This document shows, piece after piece, positions 50,477 to 64,000 of a stretch of 64,000 bases of DNA (position 1 is the stretch's first letter; every line of letters begins with the position of its first letter). The DNA is taken from contig JASFQK010000032.1 in the NCBI GenBank assembly GCA_050115495.1, positions 1 to 64,000 of the forward strand, read 5' to 3'. The stretch is from Phycisphaerae bacterium (GTDB lineage Bacteria > Planctomycetota > Phycisphaerae > UBA1845 > Fen-1342). A program made the translations under genes and the position numbers. A model generated the notes under the pieces. That model worked only from the letters and a program-made list of their open reading frames with translations. It was not told where the DNA came from and made no database searches.

Positions 50477-53023
50477 CTATTCCATCGGGAACTCGGCGGC
50501 TTCGTCGGCTTCTTCGCGGTCGCGTTGTGACCGGGCGGCCTGCCACTCCTCTTTGGTGACGATGACCTCGCGGGCCTGGCTGCCCTTGTACTCGCCGACG
50601 ATACCGGCTTCGTACATCTGGTCGATCAGGCGGGAGGCGCGGCCGTAGCCGATCGTGAGCCGCCGCTGGAGCAGGCTGACCGAGCCGCGACCGGTCTCGA
50701 TGACCGCGTCGACCGCCTGGTCGAAGAGCTCGTCGCGCTCGCCCGTCGTCGCCGCCCCGGCACCCGGCATGCGCACCAGGTCCGGATGGAAATCCGGGGT
50801 GCGTTGCTCGCGGCAGTGCTTCACGACGCTGCGCATCTCCTCATCGCTGATGAAGGTCCCCTGGGCCCGCAGCAGCTTCGACGTGCCCGGGGCGAGGAAG
50901 AGCATGTCCCCCTGCCCCATCAGCGTCTCGCCGCCGTTCTGATCGAGCACGATGCGTGAATCGAGCCGCGAGGAGACGCGGAAGGCGATGCGGCAGGGCA
51001 GGTTCGACTTGATGAGGCCGGTGACGACGTTGGCCTGCGGGCGCTGGGTCGAGACGATCAGGTGAATGCCGACCGCCCGGCTCTTCTGGGCGATCCGGCA
51101 CAGGTTGAACTCGACCTCCTTGGCCGAGGTCATCATCAGGTCGGCCAGCTCGTCGATGATGATCACGATGTAGGGCAAGTGCAGCGGGATGCGGGCGAGC
51201 TCCTCGTCGCTGGCGATGCTCATCCGCTCCTTCAGCCCGTCGCGGCCGAGCCGGTTGTAGGCGCGAATCTCCCGCACGCCGGCTTCGGCCAGCAGGGCGT
51301 AGCGCTCGTCCATCAGCCCCGTCGCCCATTCGAGGATGCCCTCGGCCTTGGCCGCCTCGGTAACGATCGGGCACATCAGGTGCGGGATGTCCTTGAACCC
51401 GGCCAGCTCGACCATCTTCGGGTCGACCAGGATCATGTTCACTTCGGAAGGCGACCGCGTGAGCAGCATCGACAGAATGATGCTGTTGACGCAGATGCTC
51501 TTGCCCGAGCCAGTCGTGCCGGCGATGAGCAGGTGCGGCATGCGGGTCAGGTCGCTGATGAGCGGCTGGCCGGAGGCGTCCTTGCCGAGGTACAACGGCA
51601 AGGCGAGATTGTCGGTCCGCCGGCCGCTCAGCTCCATGATGTCCCGCAGGCGGACCTTCTCCTTGTCGGTGTTGGGCACCTCGATGCCGATGGTGTTCTT
51701 GCCCGGGAGCGGGGCGACGACGCGCACCGCCGGTGCCTTCAGCGCCCGGGCGATGTCGTTGGAGAGCGAGGCGATCTGACTGACCTTGACGCCGGGGGAC
51801 AGCTTCAGCTCGAAGACGGTGATCACGGGGCCGGTCTCGATGGCGACCACCTGGACGCCCACGCGGAACTCGTTCAGCGTCTGTTCGAGGATGTACGCCT
51901 TCTCGCGACAGAGGACCTCGATCGCCGACTTGTCCATCGGGACGGGCGGTTCCAGCAGCTCCAGGGCCGGCAACTCGTAGTCGTCGTCCTCCGGGAGCGG
52001 TGCCGGTCGTCGCGTGCGCCGTCCGCCCGCAGCCCCCGCGCCCTTGCCGGCGGGCGCCTGGACCTCGGCGTGCGCCACGACCGGAGCAGCAGCGAAGCCG
52101 CTCTCGTCCACATCGCGGGCCGGGGCTTCGTCCGCCAGCCGCTTCTTCGCGGCGTCGAACGTAAGTTGCCGTGGTGGCTCGACTTCGACGGGCTCCTCCT
52201 CTTCGGCCTCATCCTCTTCCGCTTCGACCTCTTCGTCGACTTCTTCCTCTTCCTCCGGTTCTTCCTCTTCTTCCTCTTCGAGCTCCTCAGGCTTTGCGAC
52301 GGTCTTCTTCTTCCTCCTGGGGGCTGCGATCTCCTCCTCGGCGGGCTCCTGCCGTCCGTTGCCGGTCAGGCCGCGCGACAGCACGGTAACACCGGTGGCC
52401 ACACCCGAGGCGACGGCCGCACCGGTCTTGGCCACGGCTTCACCGCCGCGGGCTAGGACCGGGATCGACCGCCGGGATGTCCAGCCGAGCCAGCGGACCA
52501 GCCGCACCAACAGCTCGTCCGCCGCCAGCAGCAACCCGACAATCAGGGCGCAGCTCAGCACGATATGCGTGCCGGCGATGCGGAGCTGGGCCCGGCAGAA
52601 CGGGCCGACGGCCGCCCCCAAGACCCCGCCCGGACCCGTCATCAGGTACTTGTCCGAGGGCGACACGAGCAGCGCCCCCCACGTGCACACGGCGGCGGTC
52701 ACCAGGACCACGCCCAGGGCCCGCAACGCCGGATCACGTACCGGTACCTGTCGCGGCCAGGCCACCGCCATGAGGGTCAGCAGCCCCAGCAGGGCGTACG
52801 TGCCGATGCCCAGGTAATAGAAGAGGTAATAAGCGATCCAGGCCCCGGTGGAGCCGCAGAGGTTGCTCACACCCCCATCGGGGTTGAGCTGCCAGACGCT
52901 GCTCGCGGGCGGATCCCCCGTACTAAAACTGAGCACGCAGACCCACAGGAACAAGGCCGCGAGCCCGCGAATCGTCGTGAGGCAGAATCGAAGCGCCACG
53001 CGGCGCTCAACGCTCTGGGCCAT
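50477..53023 (-). CDS. ftsK: DNA translocase FtsK
   Basis: N-terminal 4TM domain (NLCGSTGA), acidic linker, ETGPVIT, PHLLIAGTTGSGKS, IDELADLM, TQRP, LMGQGDMLF and the gamma domain SLLQRRLTIGYGRASRLID. Confidence 0.96.
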   Translation of the reverse strand: MAQSVERRVALRFCLTTIRGLAALFLWVCVLSFSTGDPPASSVWQLNPDGGVSNLCGSTGAWIAYYLFYYLGIGTYALLGLLTLMAVAWPRQVPVRDPALRALGVVLVTAAVCTWGALLVSPSDKYLMTGPGGVLGAAVGPFCRAQLRIAGTHIVLSCALIVGLLLAADELLVRLVRWLGWTSRRSIPVLARGGEAVAKTGAAVASGVATGVTVLSRGLTGNGRQEPAEEEIAAPRRKKKTVAKPEELEEEEEEEPEEEEEVDEEVEAEEDEAEEEEPVEVEPPRQLTFDAAKKRLADEAPARDVDESGFAAAPVVAHAEVQAPAGKGAGAAGGRRTRRPAPLPEDDDYELPALELLEPPVPMDKSAIEVLCREKAYILEQTLNEFRVGVQVVAIETGPVITVFELKLSPGVKVSQIASLSNDIARALKAPAVRVVAPLPGKNTIGIEVPNTDKEKVRLRDIMELSGRRTDNLALPLYLGKDASGQPLISDLTRMPHLLIAGTTGSGKSICVNSIILSMLLTRSPSEVNMILVDPKMVELAGFKDIPHLMCPIVTEAAKAEGILEWATGLMDERYALLAEAGVREIRAYNRLGRDGLKERMSIASDEELARIPLHLPYIVIIIDELADLMMTSAKEVEFNLCRIAQKSRAVGIHLIVSTQRPQANVVTGLIKSNLPCRIAFRVSSRLDSRIVLDQNGGETLMGQGDMLFLAPGTSKLLRAQGTFISDEEMRSVVKHCREQRTPDFHPDLVRMPGAGAATTGERDELFDQAVDAVIETGRGSVSLLQRRLTIGYGRASRLIDQMYEAGIVGEYKGSQAREVIVTKEEWQAARSQRDREEADEAAEFPME

Positions 53024-53199
53024 GGAGAACCATCCTTGATTCTTCCCGTGCCCGTCCTCCTGCTCGGGCCTCTTTCCAGAGCGAGTATAACAGATGTCGC
53101 GTAATGGCGTCGAGTTGGATAATGTACGCGTCTGCGGTGCCGCACGGCGCGACGGCGCGGCGGCGGCGCCCGGGGTACTCGTCGGCAGGCCCAAGTCCC

Positions 53200-54036
53200 A
53201 TGCGCACAAGCAACGCTGCCATCCGATCGCTGGGCGCCATCGGGGCCCAGGCTACGGCCCTGCTGGCCGGCTTCGGGCACTTCTGGACGTTCGGGGCGAG
53301 CGCCGCAGCTTACGCTCCACTGGACATGTGCACGCTGCGCGGCTGGCGGCGATTCCTGCCGCAGTGCTTCTACATCGGCACGCGCTCGGTACCGGTCATC
53401 ATGCTGACCGGCGCGTTCGTGGGCATGGTGCTGATCGTGCAGGGCTGGGACCAGTTCGACGCCGCCGGCCTGACCGACCGCCTGGGGGCGATCGTGAACA
53501 TCTCGGTGGCGGCGGAGCTCGGCCCGGTGCTGGCCGGGGTGATGCTGGCGGGCCGCGTCGGCGGGGCACTGACCGCCGAACTCGGCACGATGAACGTCAC
53601 CGAGCAGCTACTGGCCCTGCGATCAATGGGGGCGGATCCGATTCGCTTCCTGGTCACGCCGCGGTTCCTGGCCTGTCTGCTGCTGGCGCCGCTGCTGACG
53701 GCCTACGCTGACCTGATGGGCGCCCTGGGGGCGTGGCTCATCTTCTCCGGCGTGAAGGGTGGCGCCTCGGCGCCGTTCTGGAGCTACTCGGCCGAGATCG
53801 TCGAGATGTGGGACCTGTGCACCGGGATGATCAAGGCGATCTTCTTCGGCGGGGCGATCGGCCTGGTCAGTTGCTACCGGGGATTTCATTGCCGGCCGGG
53901 AGCCCAGGGCGTCGGCCAGGCCTGCACCGAGGCTTTCGTCATCAGCTTCATGTCGATCCTGGTGCTGGACCTGTTTATCAACTTCGTCATGAACGGGCTG
54001 TACACCGCGTGGTACGGCTTCCGGTCGCTGATCTAG
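53200..54036 (+). CDS. mlaE: MlaE/YrbE family ABC transporter permease
   Basis: ELGPVLAGVMLAGRVGGALTAELGTMNVTEQ, PRFLA and GAQGVGQACT. Confidence 0.9.
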   Translation: MRTSNAAIRSLGAIGAQATALLAGFGHFWTFGASAAAYAPLDMCTLRGWRRFLPQCFYIGTRSVPVIMLTGAFVGMVLIVQGWDQFDAAGLTDRLGAIVNISVAAELGPVLAGVMLAGRVGGALTAELGTMNVTEQLLALRSMGADPIRFLVTPRFLACLLLAPLLTAYADLMGALGAWLIFSGVKGGASAPFWSYSAEIVEMWDLCTGMIKAIFFGGAIGLVSCYRGFHCRPGAQGVGQACTEAFVISFMSILVLDLFINFVMNGLYTAWYGFRSLI

Positions 54037-55488: not shown

Positions 55489-55872
55489 TCAGCGTGGTTC
55501 GCGACGACGGCGCCGCTGCGCCGCCTCGTATTGGGCCACGATCGTCGAGCGCATCCCCCCGCGCGGATTCCAGTCCGTCTGCACGAGCAGCCGGCGCGGC
55601 CGCAGCGCGGCGACCAGATCGTCGAGGATCCGGTTCGTCAGCGCCTCGTAGAACGCGCCTTCGTCGCGGTACGCCTGGAAGTACAGCTTCAGGCTCTTGA
55701 GCTCGACGCAGAGCTTGTCGGGCGTGTACTCGATGGTCACCGTGCCGAAGTCGGGTTGCCCGGTCAGGGGACAGCGGCTGGTGAACTCCGGCGCCACGTG
55801 TCGGATCACGTAGTCACGCCCGGGGCTGGGGTTATCGAACGTCGCCAGCACTGTCTTGTTCGCTTTGGCCAC
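55489..55872 (-). CDS. queF: NADPH-dependent preQ0 reductase QueF (short, type I)
   Basis: PEFTSRCPLTGQPDFG, VELKSLKLY, GAFYE and PRGG. AGGAGG RBS favours the GTG at 55872. Confidence 0.95.
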   Translation of the reverse strand: MAKANKTVLATFDNPSPGRDYVIRHVAPEFTSRCPLTGQPDFGTVTIEYTPDKLCVELKSLKLYFQAYRDEGAFYEALTNRILDDLVAALRPRRLLVQTDWNPRGGMRSTIVAQYEAAQRRRRREPR

Positions 55873-56142
55873 GGCGGGCACCTCCTGCGCCGCACGGTCC
55901 TCGCGGCCGCCACGCCGACGGCCGGCAGGATTCCGGCTGCCCGTAGTGTAGTGCGCCGGCGGGAGGCGGAAAGGAGCACACCTCGCCCCGCAGGCGAACT
56001 CCGCGCAACGTCCGCGCGAAGAATAGCCCCGCGTCCGCGAATTCCCTCTTGGGCAGCCATCGCGCGCGCTGGGCTGTAAGCCTTCGTAAGACGCGTCGTT
56101 TTTCTAATTCCGTTACTCGCTGGAGCGATTACACTTAAGGTG

Positions 56143-56553
56143 ATGGAAGGTACCGGCGGCGGCATTCTGGGACGCCTCGGCGAGAAGGTGCTCGGCTGGA
56201 TCGCCCTGGCGCTGATCGTCGCCCTCGGTTTCGGGCTCTACAAGATCGGCGCCCCAGGTCGGCAAGCACTCTGGGGGGCCATCTGGCGTACCAGTCTATG
56301 GGTGGCCGTGGTCGGCGCCCTGCCCTGGACGATCCGCCTGTTCATTCGGCGGATCCTGGAGCTGAGCTCGAACTGGGCCGGCGTGGCCGTAATTGGCTCC
56401 TACGTCGTGCTCGACGCCCTGCTGGGCGTCATCCTGCTGAACGGGTTTCCCGCCGGCGGGTGGGGCTGGTTGCTGACATTGGCCGCCCTGGCCCTCGCCG
56501 GCACGTATAATTTTCTGGTGGCGGAGTACCTGTCCGAGCAAACCGGCCTCTGA
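56143..56553 (+). CDS. Four-TM membrane protein, first gene of the ESCRT-like operon
   Basis: Four hydrophobic segments; TACACT at 56130-56135 lies just upstream of ATG 56143. Confidence 0.75.
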   Translation: MEGTGGGILGRLGEKVLGWIALALIVALGFGLYKIGAPGRQALWGAIWRTSLWVAVVGALPWTIRLFIRRILELSSNWAGVAVIGSYVVLDALLGVILLNGFPAGGWGWLLTLAALALAGTYNFLVAEYLSEQTGL

Positions 56554-56597
56554 GCGGCGTCGTGCCGCCAGAGCCGGGGATGGATGGACGGCGAGAC

Positions 56598-57659
56598 ATG
56601 ACCAAGTATCAGGCGGGTATGCGGATCAGCGAATACGTGCTGGAGAACTGCATCGGCTCCGGTACGTTCGGGGAGGTTTGGCAGGCCCGGCACCACGTCT
56701 GGGACAGCGAGCACGTCGCGGTCAAACTGCCGACCGAGCCGGAATACGTTCGTTACTTGCAGCGCGAGGGCGTGGTCGTTCACGGACTGCGCCACGCGAA
56801 CATCATCCGCGTCATTGGCTTCGACCCCTTCGCCGAGAATCCGTACCTGGTCATGGAGCTCGTCCGCGGCCCGTCGCTACGGCAGGTGATCGACGAGCAC
56901 CCCACCGGTCTGTCGATCGACGTCACGCTCTGCGTGCTCCGCGGCCTGCTGCGGGCCATGGAAGCCGCCCACGCCGGCGGCGTCCTGCACCGCGACCTCA
57001 AGCCCGGCAACGTCCTGCTCGACCTCAACGAGCGCCCCATCGAGGAGCTGACCGTCGACGACGTGAAGATCGGTGACTTCGGCCTCGGCGTGAAGAACGC
57101 CGAGTCGCTGCGCTCCATCGCCCAGTCCGCCTCGCTGGCCCGCGAGGACCAGTTGGTAGGCACGCTGGCGTACATGGCCTCCGAGGTGCGCGACGGCGAC
57201 CTGAAGCCCGACGCCCGGAGCGATCTGTACTCCGTCGGCGTTGTCCTGTTCGAAATGCTCACCGGTGAGCGGCCGGCCGGCGCCGAGCTGCCCAGCACGG
57301 TCCGGGCCCAGACGCCCCCCGGGCTGGACGAGGTATTCCGCCGGCTGTACGCCCGGCACGACCGCCGATACGAGAATGCCCGGGCGGTGCTGGACGATCT
57401 GGACGCGCGGTTGACCGTGAAGCGTCCATCTGTGGTGATGGTGCCGCCACCGCCGCCGCCGCGGCTGGGTGTGGTGGGCAAGCCCGACTACTGCCCGCGG
57501 TGTCAGCACGTGGTGGGTCCGGACGATCAATTCTGCACGCAGTGCCGGTACCAGTTGGTGCCGCACGTGCGGCGCTGCCCGTCGTGCGACGGCTATCCGG
57601 GGCTGCACGACCGCTTCTGCATCTTCTGCGGCGCAGCGCTGCCGGACGAGGAGGAGTAG
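56598..57659 (+). CDS. Soluble Hanks-type Ser/Thr protein kinase with C-terminal double zinc ribbon
   Basis: IGSGTFGEV, VAVK, HRDLKPGN, DFG, GTLAYMASE, DLYSVG; poly-Pro linker; CPRC...FCTQC and CPSC...FCIFC; no TM. Confidence 0.93.
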   Translation: MTKYQAGMRISEYVLENCIGSGTFGEVWQARHHVWDSEHVAVKLPTEPEYVRYLQREGVVVHGLRHANIIRVIGFDPFAENPYLVMELVRGPSLRQVIDEHPTGLSIDVTLCVLRGLLRAMEAAHAGGVLHRDLKPGNVLLDLNERPIEELTVDDVKIGDFGLGVKNAESLRSIAQSASLAREDQLVGTLAYMASEVRDGDLKPDARSDLYSVGVVLFEMLTGERPAGAELPSTVRAQTPPGLDEVFRRLYARHDRRYENARAVLDDLDARLTVKRPSVVMVPPPPPPRLGVVGKPDYCPRCQHVVGPDDQFCTQCRYQLVPHVRRCPSCDGYPGLHDRFCIFCGAALPDEEE

Positions 57660-57665
57660 CGTCCC

Positions 57666-57953
57666 GTGCTGCTGGCGGACAGCGTCATCCTGATCGTCTT
57701 CGGGTTGCTGTTGATCGGCATCATCGGGTTCTTCTTCATGTCGGTGGTGCTGGTGACCCGCTTCTTCCGCTTCGTGTTCCGACTGATGGCCGGCACGGGG
57801 CGGCCTCCGGTGCCGCCGATGCCGACGAAGCCAGTCCGCACCACGCCCTGCCCGGCCGAGCGCTGCGGCAACCCGAACCCGGTCGGAGCGCAGTACTGCG
57901 CCCGCTGCGGGCGACCCCTGGCCCGCGAGGCTGATCTCGATGCCTATGGATGA
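57666..57953 (+). CDS. Small membrane-anchored zinc-ribbon protein
   Basis: Long N-terminal hydrophobic helix, Pro-rich linker, CPAERCGNPNPVGAQYCARCG. Confidence 0.75.
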   Translation: MLLADSVILIVFGLLLIGIIGFFFMSVVLVTRFFRFVFRLMAGTGRPPVPPMPTKPVRTTPCPAERCGNPNPVGAQYCARCGRPLAREADLDAYG

Positions 57954-59388
57954 GCGCAGCCGGCTGCGACAGTTCGAGGAGCATTTCCACCAGCAACTGC
58001 GGACCCGCGCCGCCACGCTTCTGCGCGGCGCCCTGCCGGCCGACCGCCTCATCATCGAAGCCATGCCCGACGGCGTCGACACCGTGCGGGCCACGCTGAC
58101 CCGGCTCGAACGCTACGACCGCGACCTCGTCGAGCAACTCCCCGGCACGCGCACCGTGCAACTCCGCTTTCGGCGGAACGTGCTGGGCGGTCTGCTGTCG
58201 CGACCGGTGGCCCGGGTGCGGGCGCAGATGCTCGCTCCGCTCGAAGCCCTGGTCAGCGGAGAGGCCGTCGGCCCGATCGGTCGCGAGGCCGTCCTCGACG
58301 CCCTCGCCCGCTACGAGCTGATGCCGCGCAGCGAGCGTCCCACCGCGGTCATCTTCGCCAGCGCCACCGGCTTCACGCCCGAGGCGAAAGCCCTGGTCAG
58401 CGTCCCCGGCCCAGCCCGCCTGATCCTGATGAACGGGCGTGACGACGGCGGCTGGGACGTGGTCATGCCCGACGCCGTGCGCAGCGGACCCTGGGCGCGG
58501 CTGCTCGAGTTCGAATCGCAGGACGACCGCTTGCAGCGTTTGCGGTATCATCTGGACAAAAGCGCCACGTTGCTCGATTCGCGGGGCATCTCGATCGCCG
58601 AACTGGCCGAGCAGACCGGGCTGTCCCCCGAGCAAACCGAGGCCCTGATCCGCAAGGCCTGCCGGCTGGACTCGCGTCTGCTGACCGTGGTACATGAGAA
58701 CAGGGTCCATGTATGTCGCAGCCCCCTGAGCGATGAGAACAACGCCATGAGTATCTGGAGCCGAATCCGCCGGTTGTTGCGGCTCAAGCCCACCGCCGCC
58801 GAGCAGGTACGCACCCTGACGGTGCAGCGTGTGGCCCTGGAGCAGCAGCGTCACGAGGTGGATCAGAGGATCAGGGCGCTCGAGGCGGAGGAGTTGCAGG
58901 CCGTCCAGAGCGGTGCCGCCGCCAAGAGCAACGCCGAGCGCAAGCAGATCGCCGGACGGCTGGTGCGGGTGCGGCGTGACCTGCGCCGCGTGCGCTCGCA
59001 GGCCACCGTCTTCAGCCAGCAGATCGACATCCTGGGCACGCATATCCACAACCTGACGCTGGCCGAGCAGGGCCGGCGGCTGGAGCTGCCCAAGGCCGAG
59101 GAGCTGACCCGTCAGGCCGCGGAGGCCGAGCAGGTCGTCAGCGAGTTGGCCGCCAACGCCGAGTTGGCCGCCGGCATCGAGGTCGGAGCCACCACGCCGG
59201 AGATGGAAGAGGAGGAGGCCGCGATCATGGCGGAGTTCGCCCAGGTCGCCGCCGAGTCCGCTCCCGCGGCACCGGCGGCCGAAGCGACGCCCGCCGCGCC
59301 GGCCCCGGCCGAGGAGCAGCGCGCCCCGGCGGCAAAGGCCCCACCGTCCGCCGAAAACAAGGAGAAGGCCGGGCCCGAGATGGGCTAA
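57940..59388 (+). CDS. Multidomain protein: restriction-endonuclease-like (Mrr-cat-like) domain + winged helix + ESCRT-III/Snf7-like coiled coil
   Basis: GPIGREAV...VIFASATGFTPEAKAL...LILMNG; ISIAELAEQTGLSPEQTEALIRKA plus a beta wing; then MSIWSRIRRLL, a long helical hairpin and the acidic helix EMEEEEAAIMAEF. Start overlaps the upstream stop (ATG 57940 or 57946). The ORF is secure; the domain calls are by eye. Confidence 0.65.
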   Translation: MPMDERSRLRQFEEHFHQQLRTRAATLLRGALPADRLIIEAMPDGVDTVRATLTRLERYDRDLVEQLPGTRTVQLRFRRNVLGGLLSRPVARVRAQMLAPLEALVSGEAVGPIGREAVLDALARYELMPRSERPTAVIFASATGFTPEAKALVSVPGPARLILMNGRDDGGWDVVMPDAVRSGPWARLLEFESQDDRLQRLRYHLDKSATLLDSRGISIAELAEQTGLSPEQTEALIRKACRLDSRLLTVVHENRVHVCRSPLSDENNAMSIWSRIRRLLRLKPTAAEQVRTLTVQRVALEQQRHEVDQRIRALEAEELQAVQSGAAAKSNAERKQIAGRLVRVRRDLRRVRSQATVFSQQIDILGTHIHNLTLAEQGRRLELPKAEELTRQAAEAEQVVSELAANAELAAGIEVGATTPEMEEEEAAIMAEFAQVAAESAPAAPAAEATPAAPAPAEEQRAPAAKAPPSAENKEKAGPEMG

Positions 59389-59415
59389 GCGGGCCGCAGG
59401 AGAGCAGGCGAGGCC

Positions 59416-60024
59416 ATGAACTTCTTCACCTGGCTGACCACGAAGCGCAAGACCCTGGCGACGATGACGCTCACCGAGCTGCGCGCCCAGGAGATGATGC
59501 TCGAAAACGAGCGCAACCGGATGCAGACGCGCGTCACCAAGCTCGCTCGCGAGAAGCAGCAGATCATCGACCGCGGCGCCAAGGAGAAGACGCCCGAGCT
59601 GCGCCGCACCTTCGCCCAGCAATACGACCTGCTGCACACCGAGCAGATGATGCTCGCCCGCCACCTGAACATCCGCAGCAAGGAGTACCTCACCGTCGCC
59701 CGGCTGCGCATGCTCCGCGAGAACACGCAGCGGGCCGGCGTGGGCACCAGCGCCCGCACGCTCATCCGCGAGGGCGACCTGGCCGTCATCGAGCGCCTCA
59801 TCGAAAACGACCGCGTCTCCACCGAGGTCTACCAGGAGCGGCTCGACGAGATCCTGCGCCTCGGCCAGGAGGCGGACGAGGCCACGGCCGGCGTCTCCCC
59901 TGCCGCCGGCGAACTGCTCAAGATCTGGAACGACATGGATGCCGGACTGATCAAGGACACCGACGCCGCCTTCGACGAGGCCGAACGGCGCGTCCGCGAG
60001 CGCGAGAAGGCCGCCGACGCCTGA
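59416..60024 (+). CDS. ESCRT-III/Snf7-like coiled-coil protein
   Basis: 202 aa, all helical; amphipathic N-terminus MNFFTWL; basic N-terminal hairpin, acidic C-terminal half. Confidence 0.6.
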   Translation: MNFFTWLTTKRKTLATMTLTELRAQEMMLENERNRMQTRVTKLAREKQQIIDRGAKEKTPELRRTFAQQYDLLHTEQMMLARHLNIRSKEYLTVARLRMLRENTQRAGVGTSARTLIREGDLAVIERLIENDRVSTEVYQERLDEILRLGQEADEATAGVSPAAGELLKIWNDMDAGLIKDTDAAFDEAERRVREREKAADA

Positions 60025-60047
60025 CCCGCCACCTGCCGGAGATCACC

Positions 60048-60656
60048 ATGGGCCTGTTCAAGTCCAAAGAAGAACGCCGGATGGAACGCGATATGAAGAT
60101 CCGCCAGGGCATCCGGCGGATCGAGAAGGCCATCGCCGAGCAGAACAAGTTCACGGATGAGTTCGTCAAGAACGCCCGGCAGGCCCGGCAGATCGGCGAC
60201 ATGGCGTCGTACCAGTTCGTTCGCAACTCGCTGAAGAAGACGGCCACGATCAAGAAGCTGCTCGAACGGCAGCTCCTGGCCGTCAAGAACGCCCTGCTCA
60301 TCAAGCGCCAGGCCGAGGCCGGCGCCGATTTCGCCCAGGCCATGAGCACCATGGCCTCCGAGGTGAGCCGCCTCTACGGCGACACCGACCTCGTGAAGAC
60401 GCAAATGGACTGGGAAAAGGCCATGATGCAGTCGCAGTCGATGGAGGAGCGCATGCAGATGTTCCTCGACTCGATCGAGGAAGGGGCGGCGGCCGACGTG
60501 CGTGCCGCCGCGAGCGAGGCCATCTCCGACGAGGAGATCGACCGCATGATCGAGGCCGAGGAGCAGGTCGAGGACGCCCGCGAGGCTCAGCAGATGAGTG
60601 CCCTCCGTGCCGAGCTCGCCCAGCTCAAGAATCCCGGTGCGAAGGAAACCAAGTAA
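60048..60656 (+). CDS. ESCRT-III-like protein resembling the Vps2/Vps24/Did2 (CHMP1-3) class
   Basis: 202 aa; MGLFKSK start, basic helical hairpin, AQAMSTMASEVSRL...DLVKTQMDWEKAMMQSQSMEERMQMFLDSI, ISDEEIDRMI, and a terminal ALRAELAQLK (MIM1-like) helix. Confidence 0.72.
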   Translation: MGLFKSKEERRMERDMKIRQGIRRIEKAIAEQNKFTDEFVKNARQARQIGDMASYQFVRNSLKKTATIKKLLERQLLAVKNALLIKRQAEAGADFAQAMSTMASEVSRLYGDTDLVKTQMDWEKAMMQSQSMEERMQMFLDSIEEGAAADVRAAASEAISDEEIDRMIEAEEQVEDAREAQQMSALRAELAQLKNPGAKETK

Positions 60657-60693
60657 CCGCGGCCGGCCACGCCCCGCGGGGTGGACGACAGAC

Positions 60694-60876
60694 ATGAGCG
60701 ACTACGACGAACGACAATGGGGTGGCTTGCCGGCCCTGGGCCTGCTGGCGCTGGCCACGGCCCTGGCCTGGCTCTTCACCAACCCCTACCTGGGCTTCGT
60801 GATCGTCTTTGCCAGCGGCGTCGCCGTGCTGGCCGCCGTCGATTTCCTCCGGCGGCGCTCGCGGCCGCGTTCATAG
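60694..60876 (+). CDS. 60-aa two-TM membrane protein
   Basis: ATG at 60694; two hydrophobic helices and an Arg-rich tail; co-directional within the operon. Confidence 0.6.
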   Translation: MSDYDERQWGGLPALGLLALATALAWLFTNPYLGFVIVFASGVAVLAAVDFLRRRSRPRS

Positions 60877-60939
60877 AACCGAGGTTCGTCCGCGCGGCGG
60901 GCCTTCCCGGCGCGGTCTTTGCGGAGCAGGGCGGGCAAC

Positions 60940-62064
60940 ATGGCTGCAACTTTCGCCACGTTCAAGCGACTCAAGGACAAGGGCTTGACCGCCCTCAAGC
61001 AGGGTGACTACGTCACCGCCCGCCCCTACCTCATCCAGGCCGCCGAGTGCATGATCGAGATCGCCGAGGAGAACCGCGACGCGACGCAGCGTGCCGAACA
61101 GGAAGCCTACGCCCGCGAGCTGATCGATCTCGCCAAGGACTGCTCGCGCCGCTCGCGCGAGGGTGGCGGCGGCGGCCGTACCGGCGACCGCGCCCGTGAA
61201 GATGAAGAAGGCGGCGCGAGCGCCGACGACTGGATCGTCCGCGAGAAGCCCAATATCCACTTCACCGACATCGCAGGTCTGGAAGACGTCAAGGAAGAGA
61301 TCTACCTCAAGATGATCTACCCCTTCCGCCATCCGGAACTGGCGCAGCACTACGGCATCGACACCGGCGGCGGCCTGCTGCTCTACGGCCCGCCCGGCAC
61401 CGGCAAGACCATGATCGCCAAGGCCGTGGCCTGCGAGGTCGAGGCCACCATGTTCGTCATCAGCCCGGCCCAGATCATGAGCAAGTGGGTCGGCGAGGCC
61501 GAGCAGAACGTCCGCAAGCTGTTCGAGGCCGCCAAGGATGAAGAGAAGAGCGTCATCTTCATCGACGAGATCGAGGCGCTCGTGCCGGCCCGCCGCCGAT
61601 CCGACTCGACCGTCATGCAACGTGTCGTGCCGCAGATCCTCCAGGAGCTCGAGGGGTTCGACCGCCGGGCGGGGCGGGCCCTGATGTTCATGGGGGCGAC
61701 GAACGAGCCGTGGAGCCTCGACCGGGCGGTGATGCGGCCCGGGCGCTTCGACTCCCGCGTGTACGTTCCGCTGCCCGATCCGGCGGCCCGCTTCAAGCTG
61801 TTCGAGATCTACCTCGGCAAGCGGCCCCTGGAAGACGACGTCGATTTCGCGGCCCTCGTCGAGCAAACCAACGGCTACAGCGGGGCCGACATCAAGGCCA
61901 TCTGCACGCGTTCGGCAACTCGTCCGTTTTTGGAATCGGTTGGCGGCGCCGAACCACGTAAAATTAATATGGCGGACGTGCGGGAGACGATCGGCGAAGT
62001 TCTGCCGTCCGTCAGCTCGAAGGACTGCCAGAAGTACGAGGAGTGGGCGGCCACGATGGGCTGA
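60940..62064 (+). CDS. Vps4/CdvC-like single-domain AAA+ ATPase with N-terminal MIT-like three-helix domain
   Basis: N-terminal helices KGLTALKQGDYVTARPYLIQAAECM...YARELIDLAK; IVREKPNIHFTDIAGLEDVKEEI; GPPGTGKT; SKWVGEAE; IFIDEIE; GATNEPWSLD; GYSGADIK; C-terminal PSVSSKDCQKYEEW helix. Confidence 0.82.
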   Translation: MAATFATFKRLKDKGLTALKQGDYVTARPYLIQAAECMIEIAEENRDATQRAEQEAYARELIDLAKDCSRRSREGGGGGRTGDRAREDEEGGASADDWIVREKPNIHFTDIAGLEDVKEEIYLKMIYPFRHPELAQHYGIDTGGGLLLYGPPGTGKTMIAKAVACEVEATMFVISPAQIMSKWVGEAEQNVRKLFEAAKDEEKSVIFIDEIEALVPARRRSDSTVMQRVVPQILQELEGFDRRAGRALMFMGATNEPWSLDRAVMRPGRFDSRVYVPLPDPAARFKLFEIYLGKRPLEDDVDFAALVEQTNGYSGADIKAICTRSATRPFLESVGGAEPRKINMADVRETIGEVLPSVSSKDCQKYEEWAATMG

Positions 62065-62093
62065 ACTCCCGTCAGGTATACGGAGGACGAGCC

Positions 62094-62456
62094 ATGCCAC
62101 GACAACCGGTTCGCGACGTGCCGGGTCTGCGGCGATGCCCGTCCCCTACCTGCGATGGCCTGAACCCGGCGCGGGCCCGCTACTGCGGGCAGTGCGGATG
62201 TGCGCTGTACCGGCCGCCGGCCGCGGTCGCGCGCCAGGCGCCGATCAGCGCCGGCGTCGCGTATGGGCTGTGGGCGCTGTGTTTGGCCGGGGCGGCGGGG
62301 ATCCACCGCTTCTACCTCGGCCGGTACGTCACCGGGGCCGTTTGGCTGCTGACCTGGGGTCTGCTGGGCGTTGGATCGTTCTTCGACCTGTTCCTGATCC
62401 CCGGCATGGTCGAGAAGCAGAATCGCGATTGGGCGGCGGCGGGCTGGACGAACTGA
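62094..62456 (+). CDS. Zinc ribbon + TM2 domain protein
   Basis: GGAGG RBS; CPSPTCDGLNPARARYCGQCG; AYGLW...GIHRFYLGR...LLTWGLLGVGSFFDLFLIPGMV TM2 signature. Confidence 0.88.
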   Translation: MPRQPVRDVPGLRRCPSPTCDGLNPARARYCGQCGCALYRPPAAVARQAPISAGVAYGLWALCLAGAAGIHRFYLGRYVTGAVWLLTWGLLGVGSFFDLFLIPGMVEKQNRDWAAAGWTN

Positions 62457-62487
62457 GGCCGCCGCGCCGGAAGGAGCGAATCGCCGA

Positions 62488-64000
62488 ATGAGCCGCAGCA
62501 TCGTGGAACGTCTGGCCGACGAACACCTGGTGGCTCTTGCCGCCGCCGGGGACGCGTGGCCGCGCGCCCTGCTTTCGACCACGCCGGTGCCCGACGGCTG
62601 GCTGGCGCTGGTCGAACGCCGCGACGGCGGCCGCCGGCTCGTTCCCGCCGGCGAGGATCCGGCGGCGGAGCGCGGCGATCGACTACTGCTCGTGCGCGAT
62701 CGGTCGCTCACGGTGCCGCTGCACCTCGCGGAGGTACGCACCGCTTCGGGACACGCCGTGTCGGCTACGGTGGAGATCGTCCTCCGCTGGCAGGGCCGCG
62801 ATGATGATGTCGCCGCTCTGGGCCGCTCGCTGCTGGTCGGCGACGAGCTCACCCTGGATCAACTGGCCCGGGCCGTCGATGATGGCGGCGGGCGCGCAAC
62901 ACTGCTCGCCTTCATTCGCGAGCGTGGCGCCGTCGACCTCGTGCACGAGGATTGCAGTGCCGACCTGCTCGCCGTCCTGCGCGAGGGGTTCAAGCGCTTC
63001 CTGTTTTCGAGCGGGGCGACGCTCGAACGGCTGGCCGTGGCACGCTTTGCGAGTCCGGCACTCGCCGAAGAGGAGACGCTCCGCCGCGAGACGGCCGCCC
63101 ACGTCGAGCGGATCAAAGCCCACGAGATGGTGCAACAGGCTGCGCTCGCCGCCACGCAGCGCCGCCTCGAAGGGCTCAGCGGCATCTTCACTCAGCTTCA
63201 GTCCGCCGCCGGCGGCGACGAGCGCATGCAGTGGCACGACCTGCTGCCCGCCCTCTCGCCCGGCGATCGTGGTCGCCTGCTCGAAAACCTGTGGCGCATC
63301 ACACCCGACCGCTATACCGCCACTGCAATCGTGGTCGTCGCCGGCCAGGAATGCCTGTGGCTCGCCCCGGCGCCGCCACACGATATAACGCGTCGCGTGA
63401 CACTCGCCGAAAGTCTAGGCGGTGTGCGCTCGGTGGCGTTCTGTTCGCAGCGCAACTGGCTGCTGGTCGGTGCGGCACGTGGCGTGTGGGCCCTGGCGGC
63501 TGACAGCGGCGAAACGCAGGGTTGCTTCGAAGTGCCCGACGCGCCGGCGCCACGCACGGGCTTCAACGCGATCGCGGTCGCCGGCGACGTGCTCTACGCG
63601 ACGCACTCGCAGCTTGGCTGCTGGCGTTGGCCGCTGGCGGAGCCGGACAAGGCCGAATGTCTGCTCGCTCCGGCGGACGGTCAGCCTCGCGCGGTCCGCG
63701 CCGTCACGGCCACTGACGACGGTCGCATCCTATTCGCGACCGATCAGACCGTGCAGCTCTACGACCCGGCCGCCGGCAGCGTCACGGCGCTCGCCGACGC
63801 GGGCGACACGATCCACAGCCTGGCCACGATCGAGCAGCACGTGTTCATCGGTACGGCTGACGGCCGCATCCTCCAATGCGCTCTGGACGGCGGCGGCGAG
63901 CACCGCGTCGTGCACCGCGCCCGACACGCCATCGAGTCCATCCAACCCCGCCGCTGGAACGACCTGATCGAGCTCGTCATGCCCGCGGGGATCGAGGGCA
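62488..64000 (+). CDS. Partial ORF (runs off the window): SPFH/Band-7-like N-terminal domain, coiled coil, beta-propeller
   Basis: AAGGAG then ATG at 62488; read by hand with no in-frame stop for 504 codons. VPDGWLALV...LVPAG, EVRTASGHAVSATVEIVLRW and FLFSSGATLERLAVARFASP are SPFH-like. GVRSVAF, GFNAIAV, AVRAVTATDDG and IHSLAT...VFIGTADGRI are WD40-like blades. Confidence 0.75.
   Translation, partial: MSRSIVERLADEHLVALAAAGDAWPRALLSTTPVPDGWLALVERRDGGRRLVPAGEDPAAERGDRLLLVRDRSLTVPLHLAEVRTASGHAVSATVEIVLRWQGRDDDVAALGRSLLVGDELTLDQLARAVDDGGGRATLLAFIRERGAVDLVHEDCSADLLAVLREGFKRFLFSSGATLERLAVARFASPALAEEETLRRETAAHVERIKAHEMVQQAALAATQRRLEGLSGIFTQLQSAAGGDERMQWHDLLPALSPGDRGRLLENLWRITPDRYTATAIVVVAGQECLWLAPAPPHDITRRVTLAESLGGVRSVAFCSQRNWLLVGAARGVWALAADSGETQGCFEVPDAPAPRTGFNAIAVAGDVLYATHSQLGCWRWPLAEPDKAECLLAPADGQPRAVRAVTATDDGRILFATDQTVQLYDPAAGSVTALADAGDTIHSLATIEQHVFIGTADGRILQCALDGGGEHRVVHRARHAIESIQPRRWNDLIELVMPAGIEG

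Follow-up and report, generated by a model that had tools for sequence, protein, structure and literature searches.

A divergent ESCRT-III-like protein and a neighbouring Vps4-like ATPase in an operon of Planctomycetota

The DNA analysed here, called the window, is a stretch of 64,000 nucleotides (positions 1 to 64,000 of the forward strand of contig JASFQK010000032.1) from a Phycisphaerae bacterium. It contains an operon in which the gene at 60048..60656 encodes a protein, designated subunit 3, that is a divergent ESCRT-III (Snf7-family) relative as judged from its family profiles. We consider it probable that this protein co-polymerises with two paralogues from the same operon on the inner membrane, and that its C-terminal tail recruits the adjacent MIT ATPase through a charge-reversed Glu189-Lys66 contact. 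The pairing of ESCRT-III with Vps4 is stated to be absent from bacteria in passages of PMC10936438 and PMC7619361. A partial precedent is found in sections of PMC11237479, which describe MIT-Vps4 ATPases in Planctomycetes and bacterial Snf7 genes bearing TM segments. No paper on this operon was found in the articles, passages and supplements that the literature search covered. The portions of PMC7203096 and PMC8382908 that were covered contained nothing relevant.

Subunit 3 and its operon

The subunit 3 gene is an ATG-started open reading frame on the plus strand, encoding 202 amino acids, and it was also predicted by a codon-model gene caller (a rough model, with 4,094 genes called in the genome). 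The four peptides quoted in the sequence-only reading are present in the product and begin at residues 96, 114, 160 and 185. In the predicted structure, the hairpin is formed by two basic helices (residues 7-49 and 52-110), helices 3/4 span residues 116-153, and a tail helix covers residues 183-194. The acidic helix named in that reading was recovered as helix 5 at residues 160-170 (SDEEID). The charge is split along the chain, with 23 K+R and 11 D+E in residues 1-90 and 11 K+R and 25 D+E in residues 91-202. The MGLF start was aligned with CHMP3 in the family profile search. The protein has 2,503 homologues at E<=0.001, and its gene was found in 46 loci at 37-88% identity; the named relatives are Planctomycetota, for the most part Phycisphaerae. 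Contigs from the RNA library of run X1 were identical to parts of the operon, including 60460-60722; these may stem from DNA carry-over and were not counted as expression. No match to a sigma-70 promoter was obtained in 55800-62600, and a search of 72,556 plasmid records also gave no match.

The genes around subunit 3 all lie on the plus strand, and their conservation was counted over the 46 loci, several of which are ended by contig edges. The first gene of the cluster (56140..56553; 35/46 loci) encodes a small protein without a Pfam match, whose membrane character was read from the sequence. It is followed by genes for a Ser/Thr kinase carrying a double zinc ribbon at its C-terminus (56598..57659; Pfam Pkinase and DZR; 38/46) and for a protein with a hydrophobic N-terminus and a zinc ribbon (57666..57953; Pfam Zn_Ribbon_1; 30/46). 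The next product (57940..59388; 41/46) is a fusion, in which a globular domain and a putative winged helix (1-267) precede ESCRT-III-like subunit 1 (58747-59388). It gave a weak Snf7 match (E 0.013) and weak HTH matches; the winged-helix part and subunit 1 are separate genes in L087, L089, L091 and L092. ESCRT-III-like subunit 2 (59416..60024; 202 aa; 43/46) is a paralogue of subunit 3, the profile-profile comparison of the two giving a probability of 94% and E 1.4e-7. Subunit 1 matched subunit 2 with a probability of 96.6% and gave no direct profile match to subunit 3, so the paralogy of all three runs by a chain through subunit 2. Searches of PDB and Pfam returned no ESCRT-III match for subunit 2 itself. 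Nor was any significant PDB relative obtained with profiles of subunit 1, subunit 2 or the winged-helix part.

Downstream of subunit 3 lies a variable 60-aa hydrophobic open reading frame (60694..60876), with a tblastn match in 1/46 loci, and then the ATPase gene (60940..62064, its start chosen after homologues), which occurs in 32 of the 46 loci. A variable gene for a zinc ribbon and TM2-domain protein (62043..62456; Pfam TM2; 11/46) is followed by one for a 587-aa SPFH/Band-7 and beta-propeller protein (62488..64000, continuing to contig position 64251; 25/46). Band_7 was matched by 13/33 N-terminal homologues of the latter, and its WD40 matches were weak.

The arrangement seen most often in 20 more distant loci is winged helix, further subunits, first ATPase, subunit 3, second ATPase, SPFH and kinase. 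Among L001-L045, the spacers that separate subunit 3 from subunit 2 and from the ATPase differ from genome to genome (0.5-5 kb). Four ESCRT-III-like genes per locus were seen in L087, L089 and L092, which have two copies of subunit 2 and encode the winged-helix part as a gene of its own. The metagenome contigs L138-L142 carry two convergent pairs of subunit and ATPase. An FtsK-like gene, recognised by eye, is located on the opposite strand about 3 kb upstream of the operon (window 50477-53209); ftsK is reported as essential in Planctopirus in a section of PMC6952346.

Relationship of subunit 3 to ESCRT-III

As a single sequence, subunit 3 found nothing useful in Pfam (none at E<=1), NCBIfam or PDB. 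The curated cut-off of Pfam Snf7 (PF03357) was passed neither by subunit 3 nor by any other protein of the genome, and a Sulfolobus control likewise stayed below it. Family profiles were built from 70 and from 90 sequences. Profile A6 was swamped by ten longer relatives, most of which are FtsK fusions, and it was rebuilt without them as A9. With both family profiles, the eight top PDB matches were ESCRT-III chains. The 90-sequence profile scored 26.0 bits with CHMP3, 25.7 with CHMP2A, 19.9 with Snf7, 17.0 with CHMP1B and 15.5 with CdvB2. The alignments to CHMP3, CHMP2A and CHMP1B spanned residues 13-171, including helices 3-5, and that to Snf7 only residues 23-103, the hairpin. Chains of PspA/Vipp1 were absent from both PDB searches (none at E<=10 with the 90-sequence profile), and the PspA_IM30 model (PF04012) gave no match at the subunit 3 locus. 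Pfam Snf7 was matched by 23 of 70 family members at E<=0.05, every other family by two members at most. One relative, P0270, which was reached from the subunit 3 query at E 1.8e-9, scores above the curated Snf7 cut-off. Neither the cluster look-ups nor a search started at P0270 returned archaeal names.

Structure comparison was less sharp. In Foldseek, ranks 1-7 for the subunit 3 model were all ESCRT-III chains, but with E values of at least 0.013, and Vipp1 and PspA followed at ranks 8 and 19. In VIA, Snf7, CHMP2A and Asgard IIIB tied as matches, and the Z scores of the ESCRT-III matches equalled those of coiled coils and unrelated bundles. That subunit 3 instead belongs to the PspA/Vipp1 type or is an unrelated coiled coil, with a merely compositional likeness to ESCRT-III, could draw on these structural ties and on the failure of the single sequence to find a direct match, but it is already largely refuted by the Snf7 matches of the family members, by the silence of PspA_IM30 and of PspA/Vipp1 chains, and by the MIT ATPase that adjoins subunit 3, and we regard it as very improbable.

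The view taken from the sequence alone, that the protein stands closer to the archaeal and eukaryotic branch than to PspA, is thus upheld by the profile and Foldseek evidence, the comparison of Snf7 with PspA_IM30 favouring Snf7. Its assignment to the CHMP1-3 class fared less well. The lead of about 6 bits over Snf7 and the longer alignment coverage point that way, but they amount to a weak lean towards A-type membership.

The partner ATPase

The ATPase is Vps4/CdvC-like, with a predicted MIT domain (1-74), one AAA module and a Vps4_C helix. The MIT fold of the N-terminal domain is taken from a structure model. Together with its ESCRT-III neighbours, the one AAA module and the Vps4_C helix agree with a Vps4/CdvC-type enzyme, and both of the features by which passages of PMC10936438 recognise Vps4 are present. 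The best NCBIfam model was CdvC (residues 16-370), with 246 bits at a cut-off of 650, followed by CDC48 with 234 bits; in two orthologues the order of these scores was inverted. Meiotic-clade ATPases are marked by an additional arginine that immediately precedes the arginine finger (PMC5039278). This arginine was missing in the family, where RPGRF or RPGRL was found in 63/67 ATPases and another R-x-x-RF in 4/67. The first, upstream ATPase of other lineages has SRF in 42/42 rows.

In the window genome, the second (downstream) ATPase is the sole MIT ATPase. Many lineages have another ATPase upstream of subunit 3 (for example, L046:4488-5786, L079:8747-10015 and L083:7029-8228), with an N-terminus that is MIT-like by eye. 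These upstream-type enzymes carry SRF, not RPGRF, and L092 encodes two of them.

The C-terminal tail

The MIM1 consensus is given as (D/E)xxLxxRLxxL(K/R) in a part of PMC5141497. The tail of subunit 3 (M183-K194; 60594..60629, plus strand) had been read as MIM1-like with a single deviation, glutamate for arginine. The leucines L186, L190 and L193 and the final K194 do fit, but there are two mismatches, E189 at the arginine position and M183 at the leading acid, and L193 and K194 are conserved only within the window's own order. The consensus MIM1 is therefore absent. Among the 45 closest sequences, L186, E189, L/I190, L/V193 and K194 are each kept in 45/45. As a chance level, 27 of the 4,094 genes called in the window genome (0.66%) have LxxxLxxL[KR] within their C-terminal 25 residues, and 1,044 have a bare hydrophobic i/i+4/i+7 pattern there. 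The tail does not stand out in hydrophobic moment, ranking 125th among 192 sequence windows. The tail pattern alone is therefore weak to modest evidence. Near-complete MIM1 motifs with Arg or Lys were found in 12/113 homologues. The ATPase had been fetched for 11 of these, and residue 66 of its MIT domain is Glu in 10; the MIT domain of the eleventh failed to align. No MIM2 pattern was detected in the three subunits of the window.

Charge pairing between tail and MIT domain

The contacts of MIM1 on the Vps4 MIT domain listed in a part of PMC5141497 are Y34, L37, D38, M41, L64, A67 and E68, with E68 facing the MIM1 arginine. The MIT model of the planctomycete ATPase was superposed without gaps on the yeast Vps4 MIT domain (2v6x), residues 1-76 on 3-78, which gives an offset of +2. 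If the contact list is in yeast numbering, as we take it to be, these residues correspond to I32, A35, E36, I39, I62, A65 and K66. The expected charge complementarity was found: E189 of subunit 3, at the MIM1 arginine position, is matched with K66, at the position of Vps4 E68, in a register-dependent comparison.

Covariation was analysed in pairs of subunit and ATPase. The set started from 113 distinct subunits with a length of 185 residues or more. The fetched DNA contained the ATPase for 67, one was dropped with an unaligned MIT domain, and 14 same-genome pairs were added, giving 80 pairs. In the first register tried, with the window tail on the family's second-last heptad, residue 66 was unremarkable (ranks 3-25 of 75). 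Alignment A9, made without MIT data, placed the window tail on the last heptad; this is the second of two registers tried, and the aligners disagree. In this register, residue 66 ranked 1 of 75 MIT columns at all three weightings. The charges of tail and residue 66 were acid/basic in 54 pairs, acid/acid in 1 and acid/other in 11; all 11 basic tails faced an acid, and three pairs were of other types.

Because the aligners disagree on the register across lineages, the test was repeated on the 40 pairs that do not belong to the window's class and whose tails align directly. An Arg tail was paired with an acidic residue 66 in 11/11 cases, and a Glu tail with a basic residue in 15/26 and an acidic one in 1/26. 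The correlation of the last-heptad column with residue 66 was about -0.7. It came first among the 75 MIT columns and first among the 199 subunit columns, and took ranks 1, 2 and 4 in a total of about 5,100 charge-variable pairs; the observed covariation was reached by 2, 24 and 33 of 5,000 cluster-level shuffles. The Arg-acid pairs arose by two independent switches, one in a clade of 10 members (support 0.97) and the other in L078. The E189/K66 pair of the window agrees with the majority state in both registers, and the groove residues of the MIT domain remain hydrophobic in the 80 pairs. The tail/MIT pairs +8/36 and -3/55 gave no covariation signal. In family f113, MIT residue 36 is Arg in 9/9 paired genomes and an acidic turn closes the tail, possibly a second swap.

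The change from Arg to Glu in the tail thus looks matched by a change from Glu to Lys in the MIT domain and not like a defect. As evidence for a reversed type-1 contact the covariation is good but thin, since it depends on two independent switches and on the register that was tried second. A true ESCRT-III relative could still carry a tail that is not a type-1 MIM, binding another MIT groove, an ancestral second ATPase, or nothing, with the covariation reflecting shared ancestry. Such a tail would agree with the strict MIM1 mismatch, the small number of switches and the ambiguous register across lineages. Binding of helical tails to the helix-1/3 groove is also described, in a section of PMC9477494, and f60 genomes retain a similar tail with the upstream ATPase only. 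Against this, the covarying MIT column had been predicted beforehand from Vps4 E68, the hydrophobic groove is kept, the Arg/Lys motifs mostly face Glu66, and the window genome has this single MIT ATPase only. We therefore think a different tail function rather unlikely. The charge covariation suggests that subunit 3 recruits the ATPase, as the sequence-only reading had proposed; the tail would probably dock on this Vps4-like neighbour via a charge-reversed salt bridge.

Distribution and lineage variants

The subunit 3 family was found in 78/401 sampled Planctomycetota genomes, 49/201 genomes of the class and 26/27 genomes of the same order, and whole families within the class and phylum were negative. 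Nearly all carriers have one match per genome, at 66-86% identity across the order. Subunit 3 and the downstream ATPase orthologue are both present in 26 of the 27 same-order genomes and both missing in the 27th.

In f60 (L085, L104, L107, L112, L113, L121, L123-L125) and f36 (L082, L122), the tail of subunit 3 is shortened. The downstream ATPase orthologue was not found in 18 f60 or 2 f36 genomes (82-94% complete); the f60 genomes retain the upstream ATPase. In f113 (L143-L154, L159-L167), the ATPase is sited away from the ESCRT-III genes; the orthologue is present in 20/21 genomes, unlinked where positions are listed. Co-loss of tail and ATPase was considered as support for their interaction and rejected, since the f113 tail is similarly short, yet the ATPase lies elsewhere in those 20 genomes.

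Nine relatives (P0203, P0214, P0219, P0220, P0229, P0241, P0248, P0251 and P0260) have a C-terminal FtsK/SpoIIIE-type ATPase fusion. P0171 and P0176, of about 420 aa, have the ESCRT-III domain at the C-terminus behind a further N-terminal region. In L051 (G320:C65:7343-7939), a TAA stop precedes the tail, by assembly error or truncation.

Comparison with known systems

The top profile and Foldseek matches of subunit 3 belong to the eukaryotic A-type system (CHMP2A/Vps2, CHMP3/Vps24, CHMP1/Did2), which acts with Vps4 through MIT-MIM1. The two systems have in common the MGLF start (aligned with CHMP3), the charge split, a predicted helix 5, the leucine tail and the hydrophobic MIT groove. Unlike its eukaryotic counterparts, subunit 3 is far diverged, without a pairwise match, and is encoded in a bacterial operon with an ATPase carrying the Cdc48-like RPGRF motif; the Arg-Glu pair is inverted in most of the planctomycete family, and the leading acid is missing in the window's lineage.

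Archaeal ESCRT loci, in the parts of Makarova et al. 2024 (PMC10936438) covered, comprise a Main clade with a winged-helix protein, ESCRT-III, Vps4 and a Ser/Thr kinase, and Meth_adaptin loci with SPFH and zinc ribbon. The planctomycete operon resembles them in the putative winged-helix protein upstream of the ESCRT-III genes, the MIT ATPase, kinase, SPFH protein and zinc ribbons. It differs in its bacterial host, at least three ESCRT-III paralogues and, in many lineages, two MIT-like ATPases; unlike in Meth_adaptin loci, an adaptin domain was not seen, and the winged-helix likeness is putative. With crenarchaeal Cdv (CdvA/CdvB/CdvC) it shares a FtsZ-less host, weak matches of subunit 3 to CdvB2 and CdvB, and CdvC as best NCBIfam model, but the latter score lies far below the cut-off and no CdvA was identified in the operon. 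CdvB uses a proline-rich MIM2 (a section of PMC5840170), a pattern absent from the window subunits.

Among bacteria, Ravi et al. 2024 (PMC11237479, in part) report MIT+Vps4 ATPases, including in Planctomycetes, and some Snf7-clade genes near AAA ATPases. Their cases differ in that a TPR+6TM gene has displaced snf7, or that the Snf7 protein has a signal and a TM segment and lies beside a double AAA; in the portion of Table S3 covered, an operon of soluble Snf7 and MIT-Vps4 is given for an Asgard archaeon only. PspA/Vipp1 shares the superfamily and the predicted hairpin fold with subunit 3, but is described in passages of PMC7619361 as lacking a Vps4-like partner.

Proposed role

By analogy with known ESCRT systems (as described in parts of PMC7619361, PMC11804906, PMC5840170 and PMC9477494), subunit 3 and its two paralogues would assemble into a composite filament on the inner membrane, bound through the MGLF start and basic hairpin. 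The exposed tail of subunit 3, which by the same analogy may be a late-acting subunit, would recruit the ATPase by docking in the helix-2/3 groove of its MIT domain, where the Arg-Glu salt bridge would be inverted to Glu189-Lys66, and the ATPase would use ATP to remodel or disassemble the filament. The SPFH protein would position the remodelling and the kinase would control it. Of the possible cellular roles, we consider regulated remodelling of the cytoplasmic membrane, such as scission or repair, or vesicle formation, the most likely.

The main rival on cellular role is that the operon is a cell-division machine of FtsZ-less lineages, like archaeal Cdv. Phycisphaerae are described in a section of PMC6952346 as dividing by an FtsZ-independent fission whose driver is unknown; a tubulin/FtsZ family match was absent in genome G000 and 50/50 further genomes, 49 of them carriers, and the single, well-conserved copy across 26/27 genomes of the order would suit such a task. 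All planctomycetes are without ftsZ according to the same source, however, whereas only 49/201 class and 78/401 phylum genomes carry the family and entire families are negative. The operon also fragments and varies, and SPFH and kinase partners occur as well in archaeal loci tied to sorting (PMC10936438, in part). A division machine is accordingly an unlikely reading next to membrane remodelling. Similarly doubtful is the wider proposal that whole FtsZ-less Planctomycetota orders divide with a multi-subunit eukaryote-like ESCRT-III/Vps4 machine and their own charge-reversed MIM-MIT code.

The natural Glu-Lys and Arg-Glu pairs provide material on the evolution of the MIM-MIT code. Present in 78 of 401 sampled Planctomycetota genomes, and in almost all of those sampled from one order, the operon is a candidate for membrane remodelling, possibly division, in a FtsZ-less phylum.
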